The translations under genes and the position numbers were made by a program. This document shows, one piece after another, positions 4,766-57,315 of a stretch of DNA of 64,000 bases. Positions within the stretch are counted from its first letter, which is position 1, and the number at the start of each line of letters is the position of its first letter. The stretch lies in IMG/VR virus record IMGVR_UViG_3300037258_000352, positions 32,001 through 96,000 of that record. One strand, written 5' to 3'. Source of the DNA: a virus. The notes beneath the pieces were generated by a model. That model was not told the origin of the DNA, did no database searches, and saw only the letters and a program-made list of their open reading frames with translations.

Positions 4766-4793
4766 GTATCGCCGGTCGGGTCCGGTCCGTTAC
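4766..4793 (-). promoter_or_regulatory. ECF (SigD-type) promoter GTAAC-N17-CGATAC
   Basis: Exact motif; -35 contains the TAA stop of the methyltransferase gene. Confidence 0.75.
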
Positions 4794-5977
4794 AGCGAAC
4801 CGTTCAGGAGAAGCGCGACCGCTTCAGCGGCTTGGTGGGGTACGACCCCGTTCCCTGCGAGGCGGATCATGTCGTTCCTGGACAGCCCGGGGACGGTGGT
4901 GACCCACCCGTCGGGCCAGCCCTGCATCCATTCCGTGAAGTAGGGGCTTAACTGCTGGCCACCTCGCTGGCCGGTGACGGTTGGGTTGGGTGCTCGGCGC
5001 CCGAGGATGGTCTCCCACCTATAGATGGCTGGCCCGTAGTCGGTTCCATCGACACTGACCCAGGATCGTGGGGAATGAGCATCCTCACGGCCATCACCAG
5101 TGGTGTTCCGATCCCGTTGCCGTTGCGGCCCTTCTCTTTCTCCCGTTCTCTCCTGGCTTGCCAGGACTCCACCGATTCCCCGTCGTTGAAGTTCCCCGCG
5201 GTCGGAGTCGGGAGCAGCGCAATCGCATCGTCCAGGTTCCGTTTGCCTTGCGAGTACCGCAACCTCGCCGTCCTGACCGACATCGACCGACTCGAACCGT
5301 CGCCGTCCCGTGCTTGCGGTGTTGGGAGTAGCTGCATCACCGCACTGGGCAGCATCAAATCCCCACTGCTGCCCCGCTGGTTCGGTCCGCCCTTCTCCCC
5401 ATCCGACGCCCACACCGTCGACAGCAGGGCGGGCGACGATGAAGACCCTGAACCGGCCATGGGGGGCGCCAACGTCGGACGCTCGTAAACTGACCCATTC
5501 CGCATCGAACCCGAGGCTGGCCAGATCTCCGCAAACGGCGCCGCATGCCCGCAAAGCGCTATCCTCGTCGTCTCCCACACACCACGGGCAGGGTTCCAAG
5601 TCGCAAGCGGCTGCGGTGCTGAGTAGGCCGCGCACATTTTCGATCACCACCAGCTTCGGTCGTAGTTTGTTGATCGCGTAAGCCATGTGGGACCACAACC
5701 CCGACCGGGTCCCCGGCCGCAGCCCAGCGCGTTTCCCGGCGGAGCTGACATCAACGCAAGGGAACCCACCGGTTAGCACGTCGATCGGCTCGACCGTGTC
5801 CCAATCAACGGTCGTGATGTCCCCGGAGTTGGGCACTCCGGGCCAGTGGTGCGCGAGGACCTTCGACGCGGCGGGGTCGTTCTCCACGAACCACACCGGT
5901 TCCACGTCGAGGACCGAACCGACGGCGAGTTCCAACGCGCCCGCGCCGGCGAAGAGGCACCCGCTGCTCATGGTCAC
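4790..5977 (-). CDS. DNA (cytosine-5) methyltransferase
   Basis: LFAGAG, GGFPC, ENV, GAPHGRFRVF, EWMQGWP, GNGVVP motifs. Confidence 0.93.
   Translation of the reverse strand: MTMSSGCLFAGAGALELAVGSVLDVEPVWFVENDPAASKVLAHHWPGVPNSGDITTVDWDTVEPIDVLTGGFPCVDVSSAGKRAGLRPGTRSGLWSHMAYAINKLRPKLVVIENVRGLLSTAAACDLEPCPWCVGDDEDSALRACGAVCGDLASLGFDAEWVSLRASDVGAPHGRFRVFIVARPAVDGVGVGWGEGRTEPAGQQWGFDAAQCGDAATPNTASTGRRRFESVDVGQDGEVAVLARQTEPGRCDCAAPDSDRGELQRRGIGGVLASQERTGEREGPQRQRDRNTTGDGREDAHSPRSWVSVDGTDYGPAIYRWETILGRRAPNPTVTGQRGGQQLSPYFTEWMQGWPDGWVTTVPGLSRNDMIRLAGNGVVPHQAAEAVALLLNGSL
4948..5637 (-). CDS. Out-of-frame nested ORF within C5-MTase (LLPTP-repeat polypeptide)
   Basis: WPASGSMRNG and repeated LLPTP units as seen in alternative-frame partners of phage C5 MTases. 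Confidence 0.6.
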   Translation of the reverse strand: MCAAYSAPQPLATWNPARGVWETTRIALCGHAAPFAEIWPASGSMRNGSVYERPTLAPPMAGSGSSSSPALLSTVWASDGEKGGPNQRGSSGDLMLPSAVMQLLPTPQARDGDGSSRSMSVRTARLRYSQGKRNLDDAIALLPTPTAGNFNDGESVESWQARREREKEKGRNGNGIGTPLVMAVRMLIPHDPGSVSMEPTTGQPSIGGRPSSGAEHPTQPSPASEVASS

Positions 5978-6169
5978 TGCTGTCTCCGTGTCTCAGGTCC
6001 CGTTGACCTGTGGGGGTTATCGGCCGGTCCGGTCCATCCACTTCGCTAAGGAGATCGCCCCACAGGTGATGCCCATGATCGGGATGGTGGCGATCGCCGC
6101 GAACTCCACAAACAGGGTGAGCATCAGGTTCTCCTTGGGTGGGCTCCGGTGCGGTGCCCTACATTCCCT

Positions 6170-6197
6170 GTATCGCTGGCCGGGTCGGGTTCGTTAC
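6170..6197 (-). promoter_or_regulatory. ECF (SigD-type) promoter GTAAC-N17-CGATAC
   Basis: Exact motif upstream of the MTase unit. Confidence 0.75.
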
Positions 6198-6524
6198 AGC
6201 CCGTTGGGTGGTGGGGTCCGGGGTCAGGCATGGAAGTCCGCAGCCGATCAGCCCGCTGCGCTCACCCCGGCTCTTAGGATCGGCCGCTCCATATCCTGGC
6301 TGCCTGGCCCACCACCCGAACACAGTCAACTAGCTGGGATTTCGATCAGGATCGTCTCATCTTCGTCCATGTCCAAACCATCAGGATCAGTCACTGTTCC
6401 TCCTCTCGTGACGTTCATTCGCTAGCCGGTGAACCCGACCAGCGGTGCGGAGTACGGCAGGTGGGCAGACGCCAGCCTTTGACCCGGCTGAGTTGGATCC
6501 GCTGCGGAGTCACCAGCTCGGTCA

Positions 6525-6998
6525 TTAACTCAACCACCCGGACTGCGTCAGCATCTCCACCCACACCGGCTCCAACCCCGGCCGGTGCTGCCACTCCTCC
6601 GGACCGGATCTCATCGCGAGGTGATTACGAGTGACGGCCACCAACTCATCCAGCTCACCGGGGGTTACCCATCGCATCGCCCGGGTTTCGTCTTCGCTGC
6701 GGACCGGCTCACCAGTGGTGTCGGCGGTGAACACTTCCCAGGCGTGGTGATCCCCCCTGGGTCGCCGGCACCGGTTTCCGTACCGGGCGCGGTGGATCAC
6801 CGTCAAGCACGACGCGGTCAATCCGACTTCTTCGCGAAGCTCCCGCAGCGCAGCTTGCGCGTAGGTCTCCCCGTCGTCTACATGTCCCGCTGGTGGAGCC
6901 CACCCGTAGGGAGGTCGCCGACGTTCGATCAGCAGCAGTCGACCGTCCCGGTGGACGAGGATCCCGGCGCTGGTGTTGGTGCAAGACTCGATCGTCAC
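6525..6998 (-). CDS. NUDIX hydrolase
   Basis: GHVDDGETYAQAALRELREEVGL Nudix box. Confidence 0.92.
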   Translation of the reverse strand: MTIESCTNTSAGILVHRDGRLLLIERRRPPYGWAPPAGHVDDGETYAQAALRELREEVGLTASCLTVIHRARYGNRCRRPRGDHHAWEVFTADTTGEPVRSEDETRAMRWVTPGELDELVAVTRNHLAMRSGPEEWQHRPGLEPVWVEMLTQSGWLS

Positions 6999-8750: not shown

Positions 8751-9026
8751 TCAGAGCAGCGCCAGCACGATCACCAAACAACCCACCACCATCAACGACA
8801 CCGCGAACGTCGCCAGCATCGCCCGGTACTCCGCGCGCTTCACCGCGATCATCAGGTCCTCATCCGCTAACACCGTCGCCAACGCTGCGGGGCCCTGCTC
8901 CACGACACCAACCGATCCACCCATGGTCAGGAACTTGGCCATCAACTCCGCTGCCTCCCGAGCAGTCCCACACCCCACAGTGAGGGAGTCGGCCCCGTTT
9001 TTCGTTTCGACTGTGTAGCTCTTCAT
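8751..9026 (-). CDS. Hypothetical membrane-anchored protein
   Basis: GACACGGAGG leader; C-terminal TM. Confidence 0.55.
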   Translation of the reverse strand: MKSYTVETKNGADSLTVGCGTAREAAELMAKFLTMGGSVGVVEQGPAALATVLADEDLMIAVKRAEYRAMLATFAVSLMVVGCLVIVLALL

Positions 9027-9131: not shown

Positions 9132-9638
9132 TCACACCGCTTCGGAGGGTAACCCCGGGCCAGCGTGTTCGGTGAGGTATTCCCGCCACGTCCAATCCAG
9201 TCGCCCGTTCCACAGACCGTCCTCGACGGTGGCGGTGGAGAACAACGCCGCCCGGCTCGCTGCGACCCGCCCGACCCGGAAGTAGGCGCCCTGCGGGTCG
9301 AACCCTTCCACTCGCAACGCCCGCCCCGCCGCTTCGAGCGCTAGCCACGCGTCCCGCAGCTCCGGGTACGCGATGGCGACCACCTCCCGCCGGCGGTCGA
9401 GCTCGACACTGCGGCGCGCGGACCGGAGGGCCTGCTCGGCTTGGGCGTAGGTCAGGGTCCATCCGGTAGCGGCTTTGACGTGGGACCGCCCGAGGGTCAT
9501 CACCCGACCGTCGGGGTTGACGACGTCGTAGAGGTGTTTCAGTGGCCGGCCGCAGTGGTCACACGACCCCTCGGTGTGCCGGATCCCCGTCAAATACCAA
9601 GCGCTGGACCCGATCTGCGCTGCTGCGGTGGGGCTCAT
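9132..9638 (-). CDS. Hypothetical protein with CxxC motif
   Basis: Leader motif and promoter upstream; CDHCGRPLK. Confidence 0.65.
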   Translation of the reverse strand: MSPTAAAQIGSSAWYLTGIRHTEGSCDHCGRPLKHLYDVVNPDGRVMTLGRSHVKAATGWTLTYAQAEQALRSARRSVELDRRREVVAIAYPELRDAWLALEAAGRALRVEGFDPQGAYFRVGRVAASRAALFSTATVEDGLWNGRLDWTWREYLTEHAGPGLPSEAV

Positions 9639-9686: not shown

Positions 9687-9714
9687 CTATCGCCGCCCGG
9701 GCGCGGTTCGTTAC
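9687..9714 (-). promoter_or_regulatory. ECF promoter GTAAC-N17-CGATAG
   Basis: Motif; -35 overlaps TAA stop at 9711. Confidence 0.7.
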
Positions 9715-10061
9715 CGGTGCCTAAACCCCCGCTTCACCAGCGCGCTGGTAATCACCTGGTCCGTCTGGACGGCTTTCCGGGCCGCCGCCAGCGTCGGGTA
9801 AGGGCCCTGCTCAGGGTCGGTGGACCAGCAGATCCCCACCCACCACTGACCCTTACCTCCGGTCGCTACTCCGTCGGCGTCGCGTTTGGTGACGTACCCG
9901 CCGGTAGTGGACTCCGTCCCGGCCTGTAGCAACACCACCTCGTACAAGGGGTAGTCGGCCCGGGACACGCTGAACTCCCTCACCCGCAACCGCAGCGCGA
10001 CAGTGCGCGCCTTGCGGGTTTTCGTGGTGGACATGGCCTCTCCCTGGTCGTTGGTGGTCAC
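9711..10061 (-). CDS. Hypothetical protein
   Basis: ORF coupled to upstream gene, RBS present. Confidence 0.55.
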   Translation of the reverse strand: MTTNDQGEAMSTTKTRKARTVALRLRVREFSVSRADYPLYEVVLLQAGTESTTGGYVTKRDADGVATGGKGQWWVGICWSTDPEQGPYPTLAAARKAVQTDQVITSALVKRGFRHR

Positions 10062-10252
10062 GAGTTGCCGACGATGGTCACAGCGCCGGTGATGATCAGG
10101 GCCGCGACCACGACGAGTACCGCACCGGTCACACCGACGAAAGCGGCACCACCGACAGCAACCGTGACCGTGAGCCCAAGCAGGATCAAAATCACGGCCA
10201 TCGCGTGCCTCCTCCGTGTCTGGAGCGGGTCCGCACCCGCCCTACACACCTT

Positions 10253-10280: not shown

Positions 10281-11716
10281 AGCGCGCACTCCGCGACGAT
10301 GGTCCGCATCGCCACCGTGACCGCGAGCCTGAACGCGTCGAGCTCGAACCTCGATCCCTCGATGACAACGTCGCATCCACCGGGACCGATGAGGACCAGA
10401 CCCCACCCATCGTTGGCGATCCGCGACCCGTCGGGCAGCACCTCCCCCGGGTAAGCGACCCGCACCGGCGCCGTCGCCGGCAGCGACTCCACACGCTCAG
10501 CCATCACCAATCACTCCGATCCGGTTAGGGGCAGCACACCAGGCACGGTGGGTGCGAGGTCGCGCCGCAGTAGCACTCCGTTGGTGCGTCGTACTCGGGG
10601 GCGGGCCCGTGGTCGGGTGCCACTGGGCCGTGGCCCTTGCGGATCACGTTGCCCCGCCCGGGGTCCTCCCCGTCGCACAACTCCCGGTCACCACCGACGC
10701 CAGCGACGACCGCCCGCCATGGGGCCTGGGTCGCGATCCGTTCCACCCCGACCCGGCACCGTTGGCAAGACCCGAGCAGCGCGTCCCCCGCTGGGTCCGG
10801 TGCTGGCGTCGGTCGTTGCCGTGGGCGAGGTCTGCTAGCGACAACCGCCCGGGCGAGACCGATCACGCCGGCGTAGAACTCATCGGCCGGGCCCATCACG
10901 CGGTCGGATCACTGATCAGGCAGAGCGGGCAGTAATCCACACCGACCGGCACCGGTGTACCGCACCCGACGCAGTCGGCCAGCTTCACCCACAATCGACA
11001 TAGGTATCTCACGCCCTGCTCCCTCCTTTGTTGGGTCGGATCTCGAAACCGGACATGGCTAGCGCGTGGTGCAGTGCGACGACGTCCTCATCGAACATCA
11101 CCGGCCACGGGCACCCACCGAGATTGCACACCGTCATCCCGTATCGGCAGGCTCGGTGACCCGACCGGATTTGCTCCACAACCTGTCGCAGCGCGGTCAG
11201 GCCAGCGTCCCCGGACATCAGAGCCACCCGTTCGCGAATCCGACCAGGGCCAGTTCGCGGTGCATCTTCACGATGGGCTCGGCTGCGTGGTCGGGGAGGA
11301 TCCACTCCAAACCGGTGGGATCTACGGTCCGCCAGGATTCGGGGATCGCGTCGGCGACCTGCTCGAAATTGCGTAACCACACCTCGTGAGTGGTCATTTG
11401 CTTCCGTCCTCCGTGTCCCAGCCGGGTCCGTCGCCCGGCGCTCGCTACCTGCGTCATCCCCTGGGGAGGATCCGTGTCCTCTCGCGGTACTCATTGCAAA
11501 TCCCGATGATCTGAGCGTCGCTGAGGTGTTGGACCACGCCGTGATCGGTGACCAATCGCCCCGCCGACTGCAAGATCTGTCGCATGACAGCCGGGACCAC
11601 AACCCGAGCTTTCTTCCCTTCCAGCGTGCGGTAGGTGACGAGGTGCTCAACCTCAGTGTCCGTGGACATGGGGGCCTCCCTTGTCTCGGTGGCCCGGGTG
11701 GGGCCGCTCACTATCT

Positions 11717-11971: not shown

Positions 11972-12424
11972 TCACCTCCACCTGTTAGCGCGGTCGATGG
12001 ACGCACCAACAGCCTCATCAACCGTGGGGTAGATATGGATCCCACGACGGGTGGCCAGTTCCCGGAGATAGGCGCGGGCACGGTTTAAGTCCTTCAACTC
12101 GCGCCCTGTGATGGTCTGGCCGTCGATCACAGTTCCGTCGGTGATGTTGTGGATGACGAGCAGGGCGTCGTACGAGTTGACGGTGGCCACGAACTCGGTC
12201 GCCTCCAGCATCGACGCGATGGCCCGGGTCTGGTGGTCGATGACGAACAGCACCTCAACGGACGCGATCTTCGCGTCGGCTTCGGCCTTCACGAGTTCTG
12301 GGGACCAGTCCTCAACTTGAGGGTTGTAGTAGGACACCCCCGCTGCCTCTAGCAGGGGGATGGCGATGTCCGCGCGCCACGTGGTCGGGTTGCAGCTTCC
12401 GCCTAGGAACAGGTGTGGCCTCAT
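11972..12424 (-). CDS. Nucleoside 2-deoxyribosyltransferase-like protein
   Basis: FLGGSCNPTTWR..YYNPQV.DW..E; leader motif upstream of ATG 12424. Confidence 0.7.
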   Translation of the reverse strand: MRPHLFLGGSCNPTTWRADIAIPLLEAAGVSYYNPQVEDWSPELVKAEADAKIASVEVLFVIDHQTRAIASMLEATEFVATVNSYDALLVIHNITDGTVIDGQTITGRELKDLNRARAYLRELATRRGIHIYPTVDEAVGASIDRANRWR

Positions 12425-12469: not shown

Positions 12470-12540
12470 AGGGTAAACCTGGGTGGTCCCAGCGTCAACG
12501 CTTACAACCTGTGTATCGGCCGGGACCACCACCGCGTTAC
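12470..12540 (-). promoter_or_regulatory. Tandem promoter: ECF GTAAC-N17-CGATAC (12540-12513) followed by SigA TTGACG-N17-TACCCT (12498-12470)
   Basis: Both motifs present; near-copy at 20544-20613. Confidence 0.7.
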
Positions 12541-20543: not shown

Positions 20544-20613
20544 GTAACGCCGGCTGGGGTGTGGCCGATACAGGGGTGTAAGCGTTGACACCCGCACACC
20601 ACAGGTTTACTCT
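20544..20613 (+). promoter_or_regulatory. Tandem promoter: ECF GTAAC-N17-CGATAC (20544-20571) plus SigA TTGACA-N17-TACTCT (20585-20613)
   Basis: Exact motifs. Confidence 0.75.
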
Positions 20614-20657: not shown

Positions 20658-21080
20658 ATGGGCAAGTACAACCTCGGCGACATCAGGGTCAGCTACCACG
20701 CCACCGCCTACGCGGTGAACGGCAAAGCCATCAACCATGGTCACTTCTACGCTGACTTCGACTCGATCGAGGCTGCCCGTGAATGGGCTGGCCGGTTGTT
20801 CCGCGACCAGCACACGCGCTACGGACAGTCTCAGGTCGGCTCGGTCCAGATCCACGGCCGGGAGATGACGCTGGGGATCGAGGGTTGGAACGAGACCAGC
20901 GATTTCAGCAAGTCGCACTACGAGACGGTCCTGACCGACCAACCCATCGTGCTGGGCGCTGCTGATCTAGCGCTGCGCTGCTACGACACGACCGTGATGG
21001 ACTACTTCGAGACGGTCCACCCCCGCCGCGTTGACGGCACCTGCCACTGCGGGGACCCAACCCGCAACGTGAGCCTCTGA
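20658..21080 (+). CDS. Hypothetical protein
   Basis: Hairpin plus GACACGGAGG leader. Confidence 0.65.
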   Translation: MGKYNLGDIRVSYHATAYAVNGKAINHGHFYADFDSIEAAREWAGRLFRDQHTRYGQSQVGSVQIHGREMTLGIEGWNETSDFSKSHYETVLTDQPIVLGAADLALRCYDTTVMDYFETVHPRRVDGTCHCGDPTRNVSL

Positions 21081-21550
21081 TCGTTTCCTCTACCCCCGGC
21101 TGGGATGACCTGCACCTGAGCGTCAGGCCGCTAATCCCCCCGGGGGACTCCCCCGACACGGAGGGCAAGCCATGTTCACCATAGGGATCGTGTTGATCCT
21201 CCTGAAACTCGTGGGGGTGCTCTCCTGCTCGTGGACGGTCCTGCTGGTCCTCGTCGCGGTGATGGAGATCGCCCGGTGGGTGTGGGCAGTGATCCAGTTC
21301 GGGACCCTCGTCACCGCTGTTCGGCGGTCGCCGGTCCGGAGGACACGGCGGTCTCGCCCCCGGTCCCGCCAGCGGTTGTTCTGAACACGGGAGAGGAGGA
21401 CGGAGGCCATGACTGACCGTCTGTTGGGTGACGAGTTCTACGCCGAGCTGGACGCGATCGACGCCCTGCTCGATGAGGCTGAGGCGGCGTTACCCATCGA
21501 AGCCGACAAGTAGCGGGATCCGAGCACCACCGACACGGAGGACAGAGCGG

Positions 21551-21618
<68 letters not shown>

Positions 21619-21622
<4 letters not shown>

Positions 21623-40252: not shown

Positions 40253-41047
40253 TCATTTCGTGGCCTCCACGATCAGGGTGTGGATATCGGTCCCGACCGA
40301 TCGAAACGCCCCGACCGGTGCTTGCCGGAACGTGCCCCCGACCTCCTCGATCAGCGCCCGGGTCGCGGCGATGGGGCGTTGCCGCCCGTACCCCAGTGAG
40401 GGCGGCACGATCGCCCGTAGCTGCCCACCGGGGAGGAGCCGGTCCCACGCGAGGGCCAGGTGCTGCGCCCACGCGTACCGCTGCCCCGGCAGGGTAAACG
40501 GGGGGTTCATGACGACCGCGTCGAACCGGATCCCCGCCGGGCCCGCGAACTCCGCGTAGTCCTCCAGGGTGCCGTCCCACACGTGCATCCCCACCGGCCC
40601 GTTACGCCGTAGATAGGTCCTACGGACGGGGTCCGGTTCCACCGCAGTGATGTGGACCGCGAGGTACCGGTCCCGGATGGCGCGGACCAAGGCCCCGTCA
40701 CCAGCTGACGGTTCCAGCACCCGCGCCCCGGCGGGCAGGTCCAACCCGTCGACGAGCTCCGTAGCTAGTTCGGGTGGGGTCGGCCAGTAGGACATTTCCT
40801 TATCCCGGTACGCCGACGGGGGTGGTAGGACCGTGACCCCCGTCAGCGTCTGCAGGTCCGGGCGAGGGTCCCGCTGGTACACGAACGCTCGCTCCCGGGT
40901 GTCCCAGTGACCACCGCCGGCGAGCCGGGGCAGGACCTGGTGGACCTCGATGTAGGTGGTGCGGTCGGTGATGATGGGGGTGCGGATCGTGTTGTGGTCC
41001 GCGACCGCGCCGCACAGGACATCGTGCGCGGCCTGTGACAAAGTCAT
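40253..41047 (-). CDS. SAM-dependent (probably adenine DNA) methyltransferase
   Basis: PTP, VLEPSAGDG, VMNPPF. Confidence 0.85.
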   Translation of the reverse strand: MTLSQAAHDVLCGAVADHNTIRTPIITDRTTYIEVHQVLPRLAGGGHWDTRERAFVYQRDPRPDLQTLTGVTVLPPPSAYRDKEMSYWPTPPELATELVDGLDLPAGARVLEPSAGDGALVRAIRDRYLAVHITAVEPDPVRRTYLRRNGPVGMHVWDGTLEDYAEFAGPAGIRFDAVVMNPPFTLPGQRYAWAQHLALAWDRLLPGGQLRAIVPPSLGYGRQRPIAATRALIEEVGGTFRQAPVGAFRSVGTDIHTLIVEATK

Positions 41048-42081
41048 CACGGAGTCACCTCCTGCGGGGTGTCGGTGAGCTCGTCGAGGTCGAGGGTGTC
41101 TTCGGGTGGTGTCGCCGGCTCGTGAGCGGTGATCTTGTCGACGGGGACCTTGTCGTTCCACGAGTAGTCCGTTTTGACGCTCACAGTCACTTTGTTGACC
41201 TTGACGACCTCACGCCATCCACCCCAGTACTTGATCAGGTCACCGGGTTTGATCACCGACAGGTCCACCGGGTTGAAACGCCCCGCCGCGATCTCACCGG
41301 CGAGGAACTCCTGCCAGTACCGGATCTGCTCATCCAAATACGCGACCCGGATCAGGACCTGCTCCCGGTGCGTTCCCGTCGCTGGGCCGTGCTCGAACAC
41401 GTACACCGGCTGGCGCTTACCGTCCAGTGAGCGGTTGGTGTACCCGTCGAGGGTCCGTTGGTCCCGCCGCCGGTCCGCTTCCAACGTCTTGAGCCGGCGC
41501 ATCACGGTCCCGTGGTTCTCCCGGTGCCGCATGTGGTTCGCTGCGGACTCCGCACCCTGCGCGGCGCGCGCTGCTTCCTCCCCGGCCTCGATCGACTTCC
41601 GTTGGTGACCGTCCATGCGCTTGAGGTCCCGGCGGTGACCCCGCTCGGAGTGGTGGCCCCGCAGGATCGGTTGACCCATGGGGATCCCGTCCGCGATTTC
41701 CTGCGCCGCAGCCCACCGCGAGTCGGCCTCACTCTGCTTCCGGGCGGCTTTCGCGGCGAGCGCGTCGGCCCGGTCATCCATGTGTTCGGCGCGGTCGGCT
41801 TCGGATTCCTCCATTGAACGGGGTGGGGCCTCGACCTCGATTTCCACCTCGAACCCAGCTTCGCGGAGCACGTCGGCGGTGGCCTCGAATAAACCAAGGT
41901 TCGGGGCCCGGTCGCGGGAGTGTGAGACGCCGATCATGCGGATCGACGGCATGTACCTCCATCCCCGGATCCGGAACGTGGCCTGAGCTGCTTTGATCGC
42001 TTCCCACGCCCCGTCGCCCTTACAGGTCCCGTCTAGCAGGGTGCCGTCGGCGGCGGTGTGCACGATCCGTAGCGCGCTCAC
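41047..42081 (-). CDS. DUF3560 domain protein
   Basis: IPMGQPILRGHHSERGHRRD. Confidence 0.85.
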   Translation of the reverse strand: MSALRIVHTAADGTLLDGTCKGDGAWEAIKAAQATFRIRGWRYMPSIRMIGVSHSRDRAPNLGLFEATADVLREAGFEVEIEVEAPPRSMEESEADRAEHMDDRADALAAKAARKQSEADSRWAAAQEIADGIPMGQPILRGHHSERGHRRDLKRMDGHQRKSIEAGEEAARAAQGAESAANHMRHRENHGTVMRRLKTLEADRRRDQRTLDGYTNRSLDGKRQPVYVFEHGPATGTHREQVLIRVAYLDEQIRYWQEFLAGEIAAGRFNPVDLSVIKPGDLIKYWGGWREVVKVNKVTVSVKTDYSWNDKVPVDKITAHEPATPPEDTLDLDELTDTPQEVTP

Positions 42082-42451
42082 AGTAGGACTGCCACATCGA
42101 ACCGTGCGTCCACGACGAGTTCCTTCGCGATGACGTTGACCGCGCAACCGGGGCACAGCAGCTCATAACCGGGGATCGACACGGTTCCGAGCCCGTGGGC
42201 GGTGTCGTCGGAGCACCGGACGTATGTCCGGACCTGGGTGCCGTTGGGGGCGGTGAGGGCCTCCGCGTTGACGACCCAGTCCAACCCGGACAGGGCGTTG
42301 AGGCTGTCGATGGTGTTCTGCTGGTCGTTTCCTGCGCGGGTGGCCATCCCGATCGCTGACTCGACTATGGGGTCGAGGCCGGTTGTGAATCCCGTGTCCA
42401 TTGCTAGTGTCCCTCCGTGTCGTCCGGGTCCGTCACCCGGTGTCTACCTGT

Positions 42452-43597: not shown

Positions 43598-44218
43598 TCA
43601 GCCGACCTTCGTCCACGGAGCGCAACCCGAAGTGGTGAATCCAGCATCGCCGGCCGCGATAGTGACCGTCGCCTGACCCTTCGTCAGATCACTCGCCTTA
43701 ATAGCCGACAGATCACCTGACAGATTCGACAGTCGGGCGTGGTAGCACATTGGGATCGCAGCCTCAGCCGGTCCCGCGGACTGCCACGTCCCCGGGGTCA
43801 TCTGGGCGGGCACGGTGTACGTGCCGTCCCCACCGATCGGGGAGCTCGGGTCGGTGCGGTCCGCGACCGGCGCGGACACACTCGGCAGAGCGGACATGCT
43901 CGGCAGGTCACCGTTGTGGATCGCGGTCGCGGTGTGCCCGGCGACGGCGATTGTCGCGGCGGTGACGACGATCCCGACCAGCGCGGCGATCGCACCGAGG
44001 ACGATCCCGGCGATGCTGTGGCCCTTGTTCGTGGCCTGGCCGGCTTCGGCGCGGCGCATACCGAGCCACCCGAACACCAACGCGAGACCAGCCAGGATGA
44101 TCCCGAACACGGGGACCCAGCAGAACACGAGACCCACGATCCCCAGGACCAGGGCAGCGGTGCCGTACCCGTTACGTGGTGCTGTTGCGGGTGCGGGTGA
44201 AGCAGTTACAGTTTCCAT
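43598..44218 (-). CDS. DUF4190-like membrane protein with extracellular domain
   Basis: NGYGTAALVLGIVG..ATNKG.SIAGIVLG; GDGTY.V..PGTW. Confidence 0.75.
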   Translation of the reverse strand: METVTASPAPATAPRNGYGTAALVLGIVGLVFCWVPVFGIILAGLALVFGWLGMRRAEAGQATNKGHSIAGIVLGAIAALVGIVVTAATIAVAGHTATAIHNGDLPSMSALPSVSAPVADRTDPSSPIGGDGTYTVPAQMTPGTWQSAGPAEAAIPMCYHARLSNLSGDLSAIKASDLTKGQATVTIAAGDAGFTTSGCAPWTKVG

Positions 44219-49754: not shown

Positions 49755-50513
49755 TCACCCGACGCCACCGAACGTGAGGACACCCTGCGACAGTCGGGCT
49801 GTCACCGCCCGTTCACACTGCGCTTCCCGCTTCTCGAACCCGATCGCACGCCGGCCCGTCGCTCGAGCTGCGACCAGCGTGGAGCAGCTACCAGCGAAGC
49901 AATCAAGGATCAGACCACCCAGTGGACAGCCGTATTCAATCAGAGGCTCAAGGATCCCCCGTGGCTTCTCAGTCTCGTTAATAGCGGTGCCGTGCATGGA
50001 TCGTGAGTAGATGACCGAGCCCATCATGCGAGGACCACCGTTGTGACTCACATAGGAACCAGAGTCGATGTGCCCGGTGTGGGCCGGTTGTGCCTTGCGA
50101 CGGACCTGCTTCTTGACTGCATCCTGCGTCGTTGGGGCGAGATGGTGAACGTCCGACCACGGACCTCGGTACCAGTGCGTTGCGTGCTCATGCATTCGCC
50201 GGAATCGGTCAGCGTGGAACGTTGACCCGTTGTGCTTCTCCCACACCACGTCCTGCGAGAACTTCCAGCCCGTGAACTCATCCCGCCTATCGAGGAACAT
50301 CCGCATCGACCCGAAACACCACATCGAGTTCCCCGGGATCAGCGACGGCCACCCAGCGGGCCACCGGTCCCAATCCAGACTCGTCTCCCCGTACGGGGGA
50401 TCACACACGGTGAGGTCCGGGACGATCCCCAACTCGGGGAGGATGTCCCGGAAGTCCCCGCAGTACAACGTGACCTCGTCGTCGGCGTAGTAGGGCTCCG
50501 GGCGGGTCACCAT
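49755..50513 (-). CDS. DNA N4-cytosine/N6-adenine methyltransferase
   Basis: DPPY, TEKP, ILDCFAGS.ST. Confidence 0.9.
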   Translation of the reverse strand: MVTRPEPYYADDEVTLYCGDFRDILPELGIVPDLTVCDPPYGETSLDWDRWPAGWPSLIPGNSMWCFGSMRMFLDRRDEFTGWKFSQDVVWEKHNGSTFHADRFRRMHEHATHWYRGPWSDVHHLAPTTQDAVKKQVRRKAQPAHTGHIDSGSYVSHNGGPRMMGSVIYSRSMHGTAINETEKPRGILEPLIEYGCPLGGLILDCFAGSCSTLVAARATGRRAIGFEKREAQCERAVTARLSQGVLTFGGVG

Positions 50514-52900
50514 GGTTGCCCGATCCCTATCCGGGCGTACTTCCCCACGAACGACAGCCGCACGTCCCCCGTCGGCCCGTTCCTATGTTTGTCGACGATC
50601 ACCGTGATGTCCTGCGGTTCGTCATCACGACGCCACAGCAACAGGATCTTCGACGCGTTGTGACCCACCGCGCGGGACTCCCGCAGGTCCTCCTTCGTTG
50701 GCCGGCCACCGATCCGTTTCGTCGGCTCCGAGTTGAGCTGATGCAACACCACGATCGGGCACCCGAGCTGCTTCGCGAGCTCCTTAAGCTCCCACGACAA
50801 CCGCGACAACTGCTCCTGCCGGGACACCTTCGGATCCGCCGGCGACATCAACGACAACTGATCCACCACCACCAACCCCGGGTGCCCCAACTGCTGACAC
50901 CGCGCCCGGATCTGCGCCACAGACAACCCGGGGGTGTCATCCACCCACAAGGGCCACTCCTGAATCCGCTCCGCAGCTTTCTTCGCCCGGTACTGATCTT
51001 CCGGTCCGAGCTGGTGTTCCATCAGATCCGACAGGGGGACGGTGCCAACGTCCGCGACCCACCGGGCCATGACCTCATCCGTCGTCATTTCCAGGGTGAA
51101 CATCACCGTCCGGACCCCGTCTTGGGCCGCGGCCCGCGCGATCGACCCCCCGAACAGGGAGTTGTGCGTAGGGATCATCGTCGGCCCTGCGAGGTAGAGG
51201 TGATCACTGTTGTCGACCTCGATACACCGCACGGGGACGCTTGCCACTGGCCGGACCGCGCGAATCATCCTGCGGGATGACCGCTGTGGGGCTCTCTGCC
51301 GCTCTACTTTCCTGGTTAGTTTGAAGACTTTGTCTCCGGGCGTAAAATTGATCATGTAGCAGGTTGAGGACTTCTCCGTCCTGCCTTTGACCCGTTTGGT
51401 TCGCATGGTGGCTCGGTACCCAAGACTCAGGATCAGTTCTAGAGTTCCCTCGGCCAGCACCTTGCTGGTGACAGCGAACTGGACCTTTCCTAGTTTGCAG
51501 ACATACCCGTCGGTGTCTAGTAGCCCGGCTAGTAGCTCCCGGCGTTGTCCTACAGACGCCCGCAGGTAGGCGACCGGAATGTGTTTGTTCATCACTAAAC
51601 CGGCGCGCCTTAGATCTGTGATCAGTCCATAGACTGTCCTATGGGGACACGTCCTCACTGCTTTCCCGATGGGTGGCCCTACTTCATAACCGCAGAACGA
51701 GATGTTGTCGAACACTTCTGGATCAGCGCCGCACATCGTCCCATGCAAGGAATCACCGTCTCCGAGCCAGCAACCCAACACATAAGGATCTATCGGGAGA
51801 TCTTCCGACTCGGGTAACTCCAACGGAGCTGCCAGCTTGACCGAGTGGTTGACGTATGTCCCGAATCGGAGCGTCGCCATGATCTGCTCCGTCGTCACCA
51901 CTGAGGGATGGATCTGCTTCCACCGCTGGTCGATGGAATAAGGGGAGGTCCTGGCCAGGGTGTTATCAACGTGGGTGCATCGTGAAGATCGTGTCTCCGT
52001 CAGCCACTGGTGATCTGCGTCCGCTACGAGCACTGATCCGTCAGAGAACTCCACCTCATAGCAGGGACGACCCGTCATCACCGGGGTCGCGTTCGTGACC
52101 GTGGTCGGTTTGCCGTCCGCTCCGAACACTTGGTCGCCTACCTGAACCGTGCCCATGGTCGTCCAACCTGTCGGCGTGGCCAGGGGCGTATCCAGAGCGA
52201 GAGCCTTCCCGACGCTGGTGTTGGCTGCGACGACGATCAGCTCACCGATCCGCAACCCCCCGGAGAGTTGCTCATCGAGCGCTGGCCACGACGTTTTCAC
52301 GACCCCCACCGGAGGCCGGTCCAACGACTCAATGAACGACCACACCGCCGGCTCCGCATGCACCAGCGTCTGCGACTGGTCCCGGGACGTGGTGGCGTCG
52401 GTGAACTCCCGGCGCGCGAAGTCCAACACCTCATCCAGCGACGCGCCTTTCGACCCGTGCTCCGCGAGTTGAGTGATCCGCAAACCGGCCTCCCGGACCC
52501 GCCGCAGCACAGCTTTCGCGGCGACGATCTCCGCGTAGTAGGTGACGTTCGCGGCGGTGGGAGTGGCTTGCATCAGGGTGTGCAGGTACGGGCCGCCCCC
52601 CACCCGCAGGAGCTCACCACGCCGGTCCAACTCCTCCGACACGGTCACAGGGTCCGCGGGTTCCCCGCCCGCCCACAACGCCGTCACAGCAGCCCAGATT
52701 TGGCTGTGACCGGGCCGGTAGAAGTCTTCCGGGGTCAACACCCCGGCGACGTCGTCCAACGCCCTAAACGACACCAGAACCGACCCGAGGACCGCTTGCT
52801 CCGCGTGGAGGTCCTGCGGTGGCTGGTTGTCCAGCTCGGGTTCGCCCTCCTCGCTCGGGGCGTCGTCCCATCCGGAGGTGTCAGCGGACACCGGGAACAC
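50507..52900 (-). CDS. dnaB: Replicative helicase DnaB with intein
   Basis: PPQDLHAEQAVLG, DFYRPGH, SVGK|..|S Walker A, LEM, VVDQL, DLRES, KHRNGPTG. Confidence 0.95.
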   Translation of the reverse strand: MFPVSADTSGWDDAPSEEGEPELDNQPPQDLHAEQAVLGSVLVSFRALDDVAGVLTPEDFYRPGHSQIWAAVTALWAGGEPADPVTVSEELDRRGELLRVGGGPYLHTLMQATPTAANVTYYAEIVAAKAVLRRVREAGLRITQLAEHGSKGASLDEVLDFARREFTDATTSRDQSQTLVHAEPAVWSFIESLDRPPVGVVKTSWPALDEQLSGGLRIGELIVVAANTSVGKALALDTPLATPTGWTTMGTVQVGDQVFGADGKPTTVTNATPVMTGRPCYEVEFSDGSVLVADADHQWLTETRSSRCTHVDNTLARTSPYSIDQRWKQIHPSVVTTEQIMATLRFGTYVNHSVKLAAPLELPESEDLPIDPYVLGCWLGDGDSLHGTMCGADPEVFDNISFCGYEVGPPIGKAVRTCPHRTVYGLITDLRRAGLVMNKHIPVAYLRASVGQRRELLAGLLDTDGYVCKLGKVQFAVTSKVLAEGTLELILSLGYRATMRTKRVKGRTEKSSTCYMINFTPGDKVFKLTRKVERQRAPQRSSRRMIRAVRPVASVPVRCIEVDNSDHLYLAGPTMIPTHNSLFGGSIARAAAQDGVRTVMFTLEMTTDEVMARWVADVGTVPLSDLMEHQLGPEDQYRAKKAAERIQEWPLWVDDTPGLSVAQIRARCQQLGHPGLVVVDQLSLMSPADPKVSRQEQLSRLSWELKELAKQLGCPIVVLHQLNSEPTKRIGGRPTKEDLRESRAVGHNASKILLLWRRDDEPQDITVIVDKHRNGPTGDVRLSFVGKYARIGIGQPW
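51161..52204 (-). mobile_element. Class 3 intein (348 aa) with LAGLIDADG endonuclease
   Basis: Ala1 ALALDTP, HQW, LGCWLGDG, LAGLLDTDG, VRCIEVD, PTHN|S. Confidence 0.92.
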
Positions 52901-53551: not shown

Positions 53552-54490
53552 TCAGTAGTTCATCGGCGCGTCATACGCGTCGTCCGCGAGGTGCTCGAAA
53601 TGCCGCGCGTAACCTCCGCTACCCCGCCTATCGCTGCCCGAGCGCCCAGCGTTACCGACCGTGGCCGGCTCGTCCTCCCACCGCTGCCCGTTGAGCCACG
53701 TCGTCGCGTGCGCCACGTAGGACCCCGTCCGGTGCAGCTCCACGACGTACCGATCCAACCCAGCCATGATCACATCCGGGTCGGCTGCCTTGATCGCTTT
53801 CGGCCACGCCTTCCACGCGTCCTTCTTGGCCGTCTTTCGGGGGTAAACCGCCCAGAACTTGGCGAAGGTTTCCTCGGCTTTGCGGTTGATCGGGACAACC
53901 GGCCTAGACGAGGTCGGTGAGGGCATCCCGTCCAGCGTTCCCTGTCCGTCCTGGCTGGGGTTGGCCTGCGCCGCGCGCGCGGGTGCGCCTACGCGTGTGT
54001 GCGCCCGCGCCCGTGGAGAGATGATCTCTTCGTTAGAAGAGATCAAGGGGTTAGTGGTCGGTTCCACTGGTCGGTTAACTTCAAAAGAGTCTTTGGCCGG
54101 CTCAGCAGGTGAGCCGGGGGGGGCCTGCAGGTGAGCCGGGGGGGGCTCAGGGATGGACCGGGGGGGGCTCACCTTTGGTGGGAGCGTCGAAATGTGGAAG
54201 TTCCACCCGGCGAGCCCCCCGTCACTTCTGGTCCGGGCGGTCTTCGCGACGACGTTGATCTCTTCCAGTTTCACCATCGCTCGTTTGTAGGAGGAGACGC
54301 TGAGGCCGGCTCGTTCAGCGACCGCTTCTCGGCTGGGGAAGCAGTCACCGCCGCTGTCGGCGAAGCTGCGGAGCGCGATGTAGACGCGGAGACTGGCGCC
54401 GTCGAGGTCGTATTGGAGTAGCCAGATCGGGATGATCGAGTACGGGCCGATGTCTGTGGTGACCCGGGAGTTCTCTTGCTGTTCGCTCAT
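53552..54490 (-). CDS. Phage replication initiator (N-terminal HTH, C-terminal FW..YPRK domain)
   Basis: CFPSRE.VAE, FWAVYPRK..K..A.KAW, H.TTWLN..RWED. Confidence 0.85.
   Translation of the reverse strand: MSEQQENSRVTTDIGPYSIIPIWLLQYDLDGASLRVYIALRSFADSGGDCFPSREAVAERAGLSVSSYKRAMVKLEEINVVAKTARTRSDGGLAGWNFHISTLPPKVSPPRSIPEPPPAHLQAPPGSPAEPAKDSFEVNRPVEPTTNPLISSNEEIISPRARAHTRVGAPARAAQANPSQDGQGTLDGMPSPTSSRPVVPINRKAEETFAKFWAVYPRKTAKKDAWKAWPKAIKAADPDVIMAGLDRYVVELHRTGSYVAHATTWLNGQRWEDEPATVGNAGRSGSDRRGSGGYARHFEHLADDAYDAPMNY
54105..54174. repeat. Iteron-like repeats inside initiator gene (putative origin)
   Basis: GCAGGTGAGCCG(7-8) twice, a third CCG(8), and an inverted GCTCACCT. Confidence 0.55.
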
Positions 54491-55170
54491 CGGGAGCCAC
54501 CGCCGACGACGTTGGTCCATTCGTGATCGAACTCGATGCGGATCCCGGACCCGTGTTGATTTCTAGGCGCGTTCACTCCGTGGTGGTATGCGCTGACGGC
54601 AGGACCGATCAGTTCGAGTGGATCTTCGGACCCGAAGTCGAACCACTCACCGTGTGCTCGATAGCGAGCCAGAGTGCAATGCAGGTGCGCCTCCAGGGCG
54701 TATCCCCCGGGTGTAGTCCACTGAACTTCTAGCGGAGCCGGCGACATGTTTCGGATCGAACGGAGCCGCGCCGACACGTTCTTGGTGCGTCCGATCTTCA
54801 CAAGGCGGCTGGTTGATGAACCGATTAGGTAGACGACCTCTCCGGCCACGGGAGAGCGGGGGGCGGTCACCTTCTGCGCCCCTCGCGTCCCGGTCAGTGC
54901 GCTAGCTAGTAGCGATGGGATCGTCCACGAGATGTGTCCCGCAGGATGCTCGTCTACTTCGAGTTCTCCCAGCGTGACGAGGTTGTTCACGGATTGTCGA
55001 GTTGTGGCGAGATCTAGCCGGGCTAGGTCAGCTACTTGCTGGTAGCTGCCTGCGACTCCGGAGTGGTCGTCGCCACCTCCGCTGCACTCGGTCAAGCAGA
55101 GGAAGACGAAAACGTCGGTGCTGGTGGCAGCAGAGTTCCGCCAGACCCATGCGGTGGTGCGGGCGCTCAT
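54487..55170 (-). CDS. T5orf172/GIY-YIG-like protein with N-terminal HTH
   Basis: VYLIG..VKIGRT..RL, LE..LH, GEWF. Confidence 0.75.
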   Translation of the reverse strand: MSARTTAWVWRNSAATSTDVFVFLCLTECSGGGDDHSGVAGSYQQVADLARLDLATTRQSVNNLVTLGELEVDEHPAGHISWTIPSLLASALTGTRGAQKVTAPRSPVAGEVVYLIGSSTSRLVKIGRTKNVSARLRSIRNMSPAPLEVQWTTPGGYALEAHLHCTLARYRAHGEWFDFGSEDPLELIGPAVSAYHHGVNAPRNQHGSGIRIEFDHEWTNVVGGGSR

Positions 55171-55303: not shown

Positions 55304-55954
55304 TCACGCCACCACCCCCACGTCCTCGTGGAGCCATGACGCAGCGTCGTCGGGGAGTAGCTGAGCGAGACGCCTGATCGCCCTGTGCTGCAGCGCTTTC
55401 ACGGCACCGTCGTTGCGGTTCAATGCCGCTGCGGTCTCCGTGACGGACAGGCCAGCGTAGAACCGTAGGCCGATGCAATCCCGCTGGTCTCTGGGTAGTT
55501 TCCGGAGACACGTCGTGAGGTGCTGGGCGTAGAACTTGGTCATGATCCGGCTGATGGCTTCGCCGGCGGTGTTTTCTTCCGCGTACCGTTCGGGGACTTT
55601 GTCGACGGTCCGGTCCCAGCGGTGTCTCGCTGATCGGACGTGGTCGAGGAGGAGGTTCCGGGCGATGGTGACGACCCACGCACCGAACTCTTTCCCGTTG
55701 CCACGGTCAGCGACGGATTGGATCCTCCGCAGTGCGCGGCACCACACTTCACCGGCCATTTGCTCGACGGTGGAGCGGTCGCGGTCGTCGAGCCGGTAGA
55801 GGAGGTACCGGTAGATCATCAGGTGGTGTCGTTCGTACAGGACGCTGAAAGCGTCGCGGCCTGTGTCGCCGCCCTGCTGGGCGAGGGTGACGAGTTCCCA
55901 GTCCCCGAGTGGGGCGTTGTCCAGTACGTTTACTGTCGATGGCTGAGCGGTCAT
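55304..55954 (-). CDS. ECF sigma factor, BldN-like
   Basis: RALRRI, FGAWVVTIARNL..DH..S, QRDC..LRF..GLSV.ETA..G.VKALQHRA.R.LA.LLP. Confidence 0.9.
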   Translation of the reverse strand: MTAQPSTVNVLDNAPLGDWELVTLAQQGGDTGRDAFSVLYERHHLMIYRYLLYRLDDRDRSTVEQMAGEVWCRALRRIQSVADRGNGKEFGAWVVTIARNLLLDHVRSARHRWDRTVDKVPERYAEENTAGEAISRIMTKFYAQHLTTCLRKLPRDQRDCIGLRFYAGLSVTETAAALNRNDGAVKALQHRAIRRLAQLLPDDAASWLHEDVGVVA

Positions 55955-56008
55955 CGAACGATGCTCCTTCTGTGTCGGTTCTCCCCGCGGGCAGCGGGCC
56001 GGTATCGG

Positions 56009-56500
56009 TTAGGGGTTTCGAGGGGGACCAGTCGCGAGCTGGTCCCCCTCGCATGTGTCGGGATGGTTACCGCCCGTGGTTGGGACGGTGAGCCCGGTCA
56101 TGGAGTGGTGGGCCCGGGCGGTGTGGTGCCGGCCGTAGATGCACGTGGACCCGTCGGGGAGTTTGAAGTCGCAGTACTCCCCGCGCATGGTGGGGGTGCC
56201 GTGCCCGAGTCGGGCCAGCAGCACGGTGATCACGGTCGCGGCGCGTTCGGCGTTCCATGCGGGGGTGGTTTTGTCGTCGGGTGAGTCCCACGCGTTGTCG
56301 AGGTCGTACAGCCACGAGGAGATGTCCTCGGCGAGGTCCGCTCGGGTAGCGGGGTCGATGAACGGGCTGAACGCGGCGGTGGCCACTTCCTGCCCGGTCG
56401 GGCATTCCCACGCGTCGCCGTGGACGCGTGACTTGACGTGACCGAGCGCGCGGCACACCGCGGCGGTGGCCTGCTGGTGGATGTGCCGGGGCCTCACCAT
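56009..56500 (-). CDS. Hypothetical protein
   Basis: ORF in leftward operon. Confidence 0.45.
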   Translation of the reverse strand: MVRPRHIHQQATAAVCRALGHVKSRVHGDAWECPTGQEVATAAFSPFIDPATRADLAEDISSWLYDLDNAWDSPDDKTTPAWNAERAATVITVLLARLGHGTPTMRGEYCDFKLPDGSTCIYGRHHTARAHHSMTGLTVPTTGGNHPDTCEGDQLATGPPRNP

Positions 56501-57243
56501 GCCACCTCGTGCTCAACGGTCCACCGCTGGTAGGTGGGCAGGGTGTAGGTCACGTCGGGGCAGGAGCGGGACAGGTCCACTGTGCTCGGGAACACGGCGA
56601 CGTTGTCGGGGAAATCGGTGGCCACGGGGACAGGGTCCTCGCTGGGGTTGATCAATAGCAGCTCACCTAACGCGATGAGTTCCACCACGGCGTCGGCGAT
56701 GGGTTCAAGGTCGGCTTCGGTGTGCTGTTGGCCGCGTGCGACGTTGTCGCTGGTGTTGTTCCACAGGTACGTGTATCCGGGCCACGGCGCTGGTTCGAGG
56801 TCGGCCGCTTCGTCCCACGCGAGGTTCAACAACACTTGGCGGGCCAGGCCAGTCGCGCGGGAGTAGGCGAACACCCACTCGAACACGTTCAGCGGCAGCC
56901 CAGTGCGGGCCTCGATCTGACGGTCGGCGAGGGTTTCCGCAGTGCACAGGATCGTGCCGTGGTGTTCGTCGTGGCGGTAGCAGTCGAGGCCCGGGTCCCA
57001 CACCCAGTACCGCTGGAGGTGGTCGGTGTGTGTTTGGGGCCAGATAGCCGTAACCCCGGACTGGTCGGGGGACTGGTCCGGGGTTCGTGCTGATGCGGTG
57101 GCCCCAACGACGGGACGACAACCGTCGCTCAGCGTACCGGATGGTGGGGGGGTCGTGTGGGGCATGTGTGCCTCCTGGTTGTCGTGTTGTTCGGCCCTGC
57201 GGTCGAATTGCGTCGTTGGGTGGTTCCCCCCGGCGGGCATCAC
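56494..57243 (-). CDS. Hypothetical protein (likely start about 57165)
   Basis: AGGAGG RBS; WVFAYSRATGLARQVLLNLA segment. Confidence 0.55.
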   Translation of the reverse strand: MMPAGGNHPTTQFDRRAEQHDNQEAHMPHTTPPPSGTLSDGCRPVVGATASARTPDQSPDQSGVTAIWPQTHTDHLQRYWVWDPGLDCYRHDEHHGTILCTAETLADRQIEARTGLPLNVFEWVFAYSRATGLARQVLLNLAWDEAADLEPAPWPGYTYLWNNTSDNVARGQQHTEADLEPIADAVVELIALGELLLINPSEDPVPVATDFPDNVAVFPSTVDLSRSCPDVTYTLPTYQRWTVEHEVAW

Positions 57244-57287
57244 TCCGCAGGTTTGGTCACGTTACACCGTGAAGTCTTCCGCTGGGT

Positions 57288-57315
57288 ATATCGCCCGCGA
57301 AGTTTTGGACGTTAC
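57288..57315 (-). promoter_or_regulatory. ECF promoter GTAAC-N17-CGATAT heading the sigma/replication operon
   Basis: Motif variant in divergent intergenic region. Confidence 0.65.

Follow-up and report, generated by a model that had tools for sequence, protein, structure and literature searches.

Putative SigD-type promoters, a BldN-family sigma factor and an RsdA-like protein in an uncultured 104-kb phage

The stretch of DNA analyzed here (64,000 nucleotides; hereafter, the window) comprises bases 32001–96000 of the 104,286-bp virus record IMGVR_UViG_3300037258_000352, which has a GC content of 65.9%. The ends of the record overlap, and it is classed in IMG/VR as having direct terminal repeats and being 100% complete. 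Scattered through this genome is a bipartite motif, GTAAC-N17-CGAT, which is best explained as a genome-wide class of promoters for a sigma factor of the extracytoplasmic function (ECF) type, with transcription predicted to start about 8–10 nt past CGAT, near a conserved TGTAGG. On the same best explanation, these putative promoters would drive almost every leftward operon of non-structural genes, a single rightward block and, among the structural genes, the tail half of their operon. The phage also encodes an ECF sigma factor of its own, belonging to the BldN family, and a small protein resembling part of RsdA, the anti-sigma factor of SigD. Positions below are those of the window unless marked as genome positions.

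The GTAAC-N17-CGAT motif

The motif occurs 14 times in the window, against 0.17 ± 0.40 expected from 100 dinucleotide-preserving shuffles (shuffle maximum 2), and 17 times in the whole genome. Its spacing is strict: within the window, spacers of 14, 15 and 18–20 nt gave no sites and a spacer of 16 nt gave one. Among the 106 GTAAC pentamers in the genome, 17 are followed by CGAT at exactly 17 nt, and no other tetramer or spacing is prominent. A de novo count of 5-mer/spacer/4-mer dyads in the genome also ranks GTAAC-N17-CGATA first, with 15 copies against 0.07–0.1 expected. Gene models were taken from our own codon-usage caller rather than from a curated annotation. By these calls, the −10 elements of 15 of the 17 copies are intergenic, though non-coding DNA makes up 13.7% of the genome, and all 17 copies point in the direction of the next gene.

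A first-pass annotation, made by a model from the letters of the window, had listed 13 sites with the 17-nt spacer and one 16-nt variant, had placed each of them at a gene boundary facing the downstream genes, and had called for enrichment to be checked against shuffled sequence and a host genome. All of the listed sites are real, and their minus-strand coordinates are correct after the core starts are shifted by 2 nt, because two bases past CGAT had been counted; one copy, at 53630–53655 (−), was overlooked. The placement and the enrichment are both borne out by the figures above, and the enrichment extends to the comparison with host genomes described below.

Alignment of the copies gives the consensus tGTAACr-N16-gCGATACA, followed after 4–5 nt by TGTAGG, a short GC hairpin and GACACGGAGG as the ribosome-binding site. 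The A, C and A after CGAT, each present in about 12–15 of the 17 phage sites, constitute an extended −10. At 10 sites, the distance from CGAT to the called start codon is 48–54 nt; at the site at 39988, where the gene caller picked an earlier start, CGAT lies about 50 nt ahead of an ATG preceded by a Shine–Dalgarno sequence. For SigD of Mycobacterium tuberculosis and Corynebacterium glutamicum (ECF40), the consensus is GTAAC-N17-18-CGAT, while Streptomyces ShbA reads CGTAAC-N16-CGATGA (PMC12019637). The phage motif has GTAAC, a spacer in the 17–18 nt range, CGAT, an upstream position and the orientation of the downstream gene, and is therefore, by the published consensus, a SigD-type promoter in sequence. 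The match to SigD and ShbA that the first-pass annotation had given thus agrees with the literature (PMC12019637), and the SigD-type transcription tier that it proposed for the phage is supported as far as computation allows.

The GACACGGAGG element is more widespread than the promoters. It has 27 exact copies in the genome, 20 on the minus and 7 on the plus strand, lying ahead of start codons where checked (in the window, for example, at 4736, 9047, 9653, 10220, 12443, 20638, 34549, 39952, 42421 and 53553). Many copies come after a short GC hairpin with the loop (A)GCGGA. About ten lie behind an ECF promoter, and the remainder stand alone within operons; the element could be a translational or RNA-stability signal.

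The RsdA-like protein and the host SigD operon

The promoter copy at 39988–40013 (−), P11, heads an operon whose second gene, at 39460–39726 (−), encodes an 88-aa soluble protein (P0121). On its own, this protein matches the RsdA family model PF16751 at 21 bits (E 4e-4), under the gathering threshold of 26.7. It has four relatives at 71–74% identity, one of which (P0125) is on a 107-kb contig, and all five members of the family match PF16751, with a best E of 4.4e-8. When a profile of the phage and cellular N-domains was compared with the PDB, there was one significant match (E 1.2e-6), 3vep_X, which is Rv3413c (RsdA) in complex with SigD. No relative of the 88-aa protein was found in IMG/VR. 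A scan of GTDB species genomes, on the other hand, gave 35 loci with 38–55% identity over the first 60–75 residues, nearly all of them in Pseudonocardiaceae or Pseudonocardiales metagenome-assembled genomes, Amycolatopsis and Prauserella. Since nearly all of the cellular RsdA-like loci are found there, the phage host is likely a high-GC soil actinomycete of the Pseudonocardiaceae.

The cellular relatives are 268–423 aa long and have one membrane helix at about residues 90–119. The phage protein is colinear with their cytoplasmic part and has an arginine-rich tail where their helix begins; it contains no membrane helix or hydrophobic segment (maximum 19-residue hydropathy 0.75). Judged by the family matches, the 3vep_X match and this colinearity, it is a genuine homologue of the N-terminal, SigD-binding region of RsdA, and the identity given to it in the first-pass annotation is upheld.

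In 33 of the 35 GTDB loci, the RsdA-like gene stands immediately behind an ECF sigma gene of the same strand, whose end is about 60 nt away. Three of these host sigmas were scored on the ShbA/SigD model NF007230 and, with 277–290 bits, passed its cut-off of 209. Each of the 33 sigD-like host genes stands behind (C)GTAAC-N17-(G)CGATG(A/G)C, which in most cases is followed by (T)GTAGG or GTGGG; in the phage promoters, TGTAGG is 1–2 nt further from CGAT than in the host sigD promoters. The phage promoter type is best explained as a copy of the autoregulatory promoter of the host ECF40 SigD–RsdA operon.

Host genomes carry far fewer such sites for their size. In an Amycolatopsis genome of 10.8 Mb, GTAAC-N17-CGAT occurs 24 times and the reversed-pattern control once; in a Prauserella genome of 5.6 Mb, the counts are 12 and 5. 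The density in the phage (17 in 0.104 Mb) is about 70 times higher, and its count equals that of a whole host regulon. At 20 Amycolatopsis sites there is no conservation after CGAT, whereas the phage sites keep A-C-A and the host sigD promoter has GAC.

Could the motif be something other than a promoter? A repressor or partition protein of the phage might bind it as a bipartite site, or it might be a repeat that belongs to duplicated leader cassettes. Several sites do share GC-rich parts of the spacer and the downstream hairpin with the GACACGGAGG leader, so that some cassette duplication is plausible. However, two conserved blocks with a 17-nt spacing, variable spacers and a constant distance to the start codon are the anatomy of an ECF promoter; moreover, this dyad stands ahead of every one of the 33 host sigD genes and agrees with an experimentally established consensus. 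A non-promoter function is very improbable.

The BldN-like sigma factor and the reading of the promoters

The sigma gene lies at 55304–55954 (−), in a leftward operon that runs from 57240 to 53552 behind a copy of the motif, P15 (aGTAAC-N17-CGATATA), at 57290–57315 (−). The 216-aa product consists of sigma2 and sigma4 only, with matches above the Pfam cut-offs to Sigma70_r2 (residues 39–110), Sigma70_r4 and r4_2 (146–196) and Sigma70_ECF, and it scores 69 bits on TIGR02937 (cut-off 42.9), as a member of the ECF (group 4) sigma-70 factors. The best NCBIfam model, well ahead of the others, is BldN, TIGR02952, at 129.2 bits, under the equivalog cut-off of 206; on NF007230 it reaches 82.5–82.9 bits against a cut-off of 209 and is no ECF40 sigma. 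The first-pass annotation was right both in calling this sigma BldN-like and in placing it downstream of the 57290 copy. Among PDB chains, the best match is 6dxo_A (115 bits), which we take to be Streptomyces venezuelae BldN from the complex with RsbN, followed by ShbA 9isn (51) and SigD sigma4 3vep_D (35). Its relatives fall into a group of 15 metagenomic proteins at 55–83% identity (P0002–P0016) and a group of Pseudonocardia, Actinokineospora and Amycolatopsis sigmas at 46–51%; for Pseudonocardiales BldN-like sigmas, the range is 45–51%. A tblastn search of 50,697 phage records gave distant matches only (Streptomyces phage Gilgamesh, 29%, and crAss-like phages).

The sigma4 helix of the phage protein, KALQHRAxRRLA, is common to cellular BldN, while host SigD has the related VAQHRALxRLR; both pair with GTAAC. 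The phage sigma begins about 20 aa before sigma2, whereas its cellular homologues have longer N-terminal extensions. No RsbN (DUF5667) gene lies beside it, the neighbors having no Pfam match or else T5orf172 or HTH_36. Both sigma2 loops, the L3 loop and the "specificity loop", carry 2-aa insertions; these loops align with elements of ShbA that contact the −10. These insertions were considered as the cause of CGAT specificity and then downgraded, since a second phage described below, G001, has a sigma without them and the motif in its genome; they are not a general explanation, because its sigma2 is very nearly that of cellular BldN and the phage nevertheless carries CGAT sites. Directly downstream of the sigma gene, at 54487–55170 (−), lies a gene with a very low coding score for a T5orf172/MUG113-domain protein, a GIY-YIG-like nuclease fold; the gene is possibly a mobile insertion.

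What do cellular BldN relatives read? A metagenome scan with the phage sigma gave cellular BldN-like loci only, and a BldN-type consensus was derived from 44 of these (40–51% identity to the phage sigma; 42 with enough sequence) by reading the sequence after each sigma gene, where rsbN lies; rsbN is a direct BldN target (PMC6101532; PMC4255298). GTAAC-N16/17-CGTT precedes rsbN in 33 of the 42 loci, with a 16-nt spacer in 27 and a 17-nt spacer in 6, and the −10 is mostly CGTTG. BldN thus shares GTAAC but uses a CGTTG-type −10, as the first-pass annotation had stated. Of such a promoter, the phage motif has the −35 half (GTAAC) and lacks the −10 half (CGTTG). The whole phage genome contains no GTAAC-N16-CGTT and only two copies of GTAAC-N17-CGTT, both intergenic, on the plus strand and outside the window.

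These two sites, GTAAC-N17-CGTTGA at genome 19198 (+) and GTAAC-N17-CGTTAA at genome 103248 (+), have a BldN-type −10 at the phage spacing. One lies in an island between tail genes; the other has a small gene downstream and falls in the part of the plus strand that leads up to portal on the circular map. A further observation concerns the cellular loci themselves: in 9 of the 42 (L019, L021, L026, L027, L028 and L032–L035; for example, L027:10545–10583), an antisense GTAAC-N17-CGATA sits right after the bldN stop codon, pointing back into bldN, 60–90 nt before the sense GTAAC-N16-CGTTG promoter of rsbN. This antisense site may be a promoter linking SigD-type recognition, or a second BldN specificity, to the control of bldN.

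The pairing of sigma and motif is found in other phages. An exact-pattern scan of IMG/VR with the strict consensus gave single, scattered matches only. Two complete 120-kb IMG/VR phages, G001 and G002, have 7–8 copies of the motif each, against 0 in a reversed-pattern control, and G003, a 21-kb fragment, has 2; each of the three encodes a sigma that is BldN-like and shares the QHRA sigma4 helix. Genes stand downstream of the copies in G001. This phage has only about 13 proteins in common with the one studied here, and the sigma–motif pairing therefore recurs in separate lineages. Two complete phages with a QYRA sigma helix have no copies. In G004 and G005, complete phages that encode a sigma, a de novo search for dyads gave no ECF-like promoter class; their bearing on covariation is limited to the absence of GTAAC sites. 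G001 has no CGTT-type sites, and neither G001 nor G002 has an RsdA-like gene; by hydropathy, no membrane anti-sigma is encoded by the genes downstream of the G001 sigma. A SigA-like site, TGGACA-N18-TAGACT, belongs to the G001 sigma operon and fits a cascade from host sigmaA to the phage sigma. Among the genomes examined, all three parts (promoters, sigma and RsdA-like protein) occur only in the study phage.

Which sigma factor, then, reads the promoters? The first-pass annotation had named host SigD and the phage sigma as alternatives. The motif and its placement, the family assignments and the host sigD–rsdA operon with its promoter are there to be seen in the sequences; from them we infer which sigma acts as reader, in what order events proceed and what the RsdA fragment binds. 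The reading that we tentatively favor, with somewhat less than even confidence, is a hand-over, in which host SigD ignites the system and the phage sigma takes over. Upon infection, free host SigD holoenzyme would fire the phage promoters at a low level, P15 included. Only P15 precedes the sigma operon; a host sigma has to act there before the phage sigma can, SigD being the obvious choice. The BldN-derived phage sigma, with its GTAAC-associated KALQHRAxRRLA helix and without the BldN pro-sequence or an RsbN partner, would then become the main reader, amplifying all of the copies, including its own. Finally, the soluble RsdA N-domain made from P11 would sequester host SigD. The 17 copies in each phage genome are as many as a whole host regulon comprises, and the need for sigma would multiply with replication. 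The phage-specific extended −10 fits tuning to a different reader, and the phage sigma is also favored as the reader in that the only GTAAC-anchored promoter class in the phage is of the CGAT type. In its boldest form, which is possible though rather doubtful, the hand-over would amount to a swap of sigma identity: a BldN-derived sigma re-tuned to promoters of the host SigD class, a phage genome filled with promoters of this class in a stricter form, and the legitimate reader removed by a membrane-free, signal-blind copy of anti-SigD.

Several points weigh against a hand-over. Cellular BldN relatives pair GTAAC with CGTTG at rsbN and not with CGAT, and the sigma2 of G001 is almost identical to that of cellular BldN, yet G001 has CGAT sites. 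Scans for sigma-70 and strict SigA-like promoters upstream of the phage sigma operon gave nothing convincing, with only P15 seen, and the missing SigA-like promoter fits SigD ignition and a purely SigD-driven scheme equally. The association between the motif and QHRA sigmas could be confounded by host lineage, and the extended −10 could be conserved because the promoter cassettes derive from one another, not because of selection. The RsdA fragment is itself a puzzle: expected by homology to bind SigD, it would be pointless if SigD is irrelevant and self-defeating if SigD is the sole reader.

The last case deserves closer attention, for host SigD alone might read all of the copies. Its shut-off, brought about as the SigD-dependent RsdA fragment accumulates, would time the switch from early and middle to late expression, and the BldN-like sigma would drive host BldN targets or unrecognized late promoters. 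The phage motif is, after all, the published SigD consensus and the promoter type of host sigD; the anti-sigma fragment closely copies host RsdA (38–55% identity); the sigma operon relies on the same motif, with no SigA-like alternative found; cellular BldN promoters have CGTTG; and, at genome 19198 and 103248, two GTAAC-N17-CGTT(G/A)A sites may represent true BldN-type targets. What such a scheme does not explain is why the motif and a BldN-like sigma also go together in a second, unrelated lineage, where G001 has neither CGTT-type sites nor an RsdA-like gene. The phage-specific extended −10 (ACA) is absent from host sites. Seventeen strong sites would also compete for a sigma that serves about 12–24 host sites and is normally held by RsdA. 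We regard a circuit run by SigD alone as unlikely, though a serious contender.

Conversely, the circuit could be self-contained, with the phage sigma as the sole relevant reader, the RsdA-like protein as its recruited and retargeted cognate anti-sigma, and SigD as a bystander. An anti-sigma gene in a motif-driven operon is the classic feedback layout of ECF systems, and QHRA..RL is found in the sigma4 helices of both BldN-like and SigD-like sigmas. Structure prediction for the complex, made for the phage-sigma pair only, gave an ipSAE of 0.40 against 0.00 for the best control, classed as "weak support", with runs that agree in at least 46% of contacts and a partner pLDDT of at least 55. In calibration of the tool, 58 of 80 solved complexes reached the mark, as did 2 of 110 mismatched pairs; scores of 0.60 or under comprised 7 of the 80 solved complexes and both of the mismatches that passed. 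Such a score may mirror likeness to solved sigma/anti-sigma complexes, and a predicted value of 0.40 does not discriminate between the models. Furthermore, the cognate anti-sigma of cellular BldN, RsbN (DUF5667), is unrelated to RsdA, and the cellular RsbN of locus L027 has DUF5667 without PF16751; an RsdA-like gene is missing from G001 and G002, which do have the sigma and the motif; and the sigma operon needs a starter other than the phage sigma. A closed circuit of this kind is quite unlikely, and the hand-over from host SigD to the phage sigma is retained as the working proposal.

Operons, known systems and implications

The genome has its structural genes (portal, protease, major capsid, major tail and tape measure) on the plus strand and its replication genes (HTH_36 protein, IstB/DnaC-like protein and intein-containing DnaB) on the minus strand. 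A megablast search with 8 kb of sequence found no match among 50,697 deposited phage genomes, and thus no close sequenced relative there. The remaining copies of the motif (coordinates from GTAAC to CGAT) are mostly on the minus strand. P1 (GTAAC-N17-CGATACA; 4768–4793, −) lies ahead of 4071–4718 (−), which encodes a membrane protein of the cation-efflux family (PF01545, 82 bits); the G001 homologue of this protein (47% identity) is likewise downstream of a GTAAC-N17-CGAT site. P2 (6172–6197, −) precedes a 35-aa open reading frame and the DNA methyltransferase gene 4790–5977 (−), and P3 (9078–9103, −; −10 CGATTAT) heads a run of small genes from 8751–9026 onward. Next come P4 (9689–9714, −), ahead of gene 9132–9638; P5 (10255–10280, −), ahead of genes 10058–10201 and 9711–10061; P6 (11719–11744, −), ahead of gene 11454–11669 and the small genes after it; and P7 (12515–12540, −), ahead of the nucleoside 2-deoxyribosyltransferase-like gene 11972–12424 (−). 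The sole plus-strand copy in the window, P8 (20544–20569, +), heads the rightward block 20658–29868.

Further along, P9 (34582–34607, −) lies ahead of gene 34307–34534 and an operon that extends down to about 30397, and the N16 variant, GTAAC-N16-CGATTAA (35453–35477, −), has an ATG about 35 nt downstream. P12 (42454–42479, −) precedes 42078–42401, 41047–42063 (DUF3560) and the DNA methyltransferase-like gene 40253–41047 (−), the second such gene behind an ECF-type promoter, and P13 (44300–44325, −) precedes gene 43598–44218 and onward. The ECF-driven cargo also includes an HNH endonuclease inserted in a phrog_2045 protein, 36802–38181 (−). The weaker copy that had been overlooked (CGATAGG; 53630–53655, −) is inside the 3′ end of gene 53552–54520 and is a possible internal promoter for the IstB/DnaC-like and intein-bearing DnaB genes. 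The latter encodes a 797-aa helicase (50507–52900, −) with the intein between the DnaB N-terminal and C-terminal domains, carrying Hom_end and LAGLIDADG_3 domains (residues 449–525). Outside the window, copies at genome 17609 (+) and 20150 (+) stand on either side of a 2.5-kb island that separates the major tail gene from the tape measure gene, and the copy at genome 22989 (+), which is intragenic in the tape measure gene, is probably a chance match.

A strict search of the genome for TTGAC(A/G)-N16-18-TANNNT gave 8 sites, 7 of them intergenic, which are candidate host-sigmaA promoters. One faces rightward from the divergent region at 57421. Two others stand in tandem with ECF promoters: TTGACG-N17-TACCCT at about 12470–12498 (−), directly after P7, and TTGACA-N17-TACTCT at about 20585–20613 (+), directly after P8. 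The tandems at 12470–12540 (−) and 20544–20613 (+) are divergent copies of an ECF promoter and a near-consensus SigA-like promoter less than 20 nt apart. They have about 50 nt in common (GTAAGCGTTGACnC...CAGGTTTACyCT) and bracket an 8-kb block (12.5–20.5 kb) within which there is no ECF copy.

How does this arrangement compare with known systems? With the SigD–RsdA systems (ECF40) of M. tuberculosis and C. glutamicum, and with ShbA, the phage shares the promoter type, and its 88-aa protein is homologous to the RsdA N-domain. It has no ECF40 sigma, however, and its promoters add the conserved ACA after CGAT; its anti-sigma copy, having neither the membrane helix nor the extracytoplasmic part, would not be controllable from the membrane. 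The family nearest to the phage sigma is sigma-BldN/RsbN of Streptomyces (PDB 6DXO; PMC6101532), with the same sigma4 helix and the GTAAC −35. In contrast to BldN, the phage sigma scores under the family cut-off, lacks a pro-sequence and an adjacent RsbN and has the 2-aa loop insertions, and the promoters are CGATACA at 17 nt rather than CGTTG at mostly 16 nt. G001 and G002 are alike in motif copies and BldN-like sigma, the RsdA-like gene being found only in the study phage.

Sigma and anti-sigma factors are textbook tools by which phages take over their hosts, and cascades and anti-sigmas of this kind include gp28 and gp33/34 of SPO1, gp55 and AsiA of T4, and gp36 of phiEco32. Like these phages, the study phage has its own sigma, a matching promoter set and a small protein aimed at a sigma. 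Unlike them, it has a sigma of recently host-derived ECF type, promoters that mimic an ECF regulon already present in the host instead of having a phage-specific motif, and an anti-sigma that is a truncated copy of the host's own anti-sigma domain. In a limited literature search, no description was found of a phage ECF sigma regulon, of a phage copy of an ECF anti-sigma domain or of ECF sigma networks as targets of phages.

One genome thus combines a host-type ECF promoter class, a sigma of a different ECF family and a truncated host anti-sigma domain, in what resembles a circuit by which one branch of host transcription would be taken over, and an uncultured 104-kb phage gains a candidate host family, the Pseudonocardiaceae. 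The finding opens questions about how the −10 specificity of an ECF sigma shifts (from CGTT to CGAT), about the retargeting of anti-sigmas between ECF families, and about a phage that depends on a stress-signaling sigma and then replaces it. These are directly testable, because the parts are short and well defined, and the same parts may supply orthogonal sigma, promoter and anti-sigma components for actinomycete engineering. If the sigma swap is true, a host ECF channel would have been converted into a private phage channel, beyond the reach of the off-switch of host RsdA.

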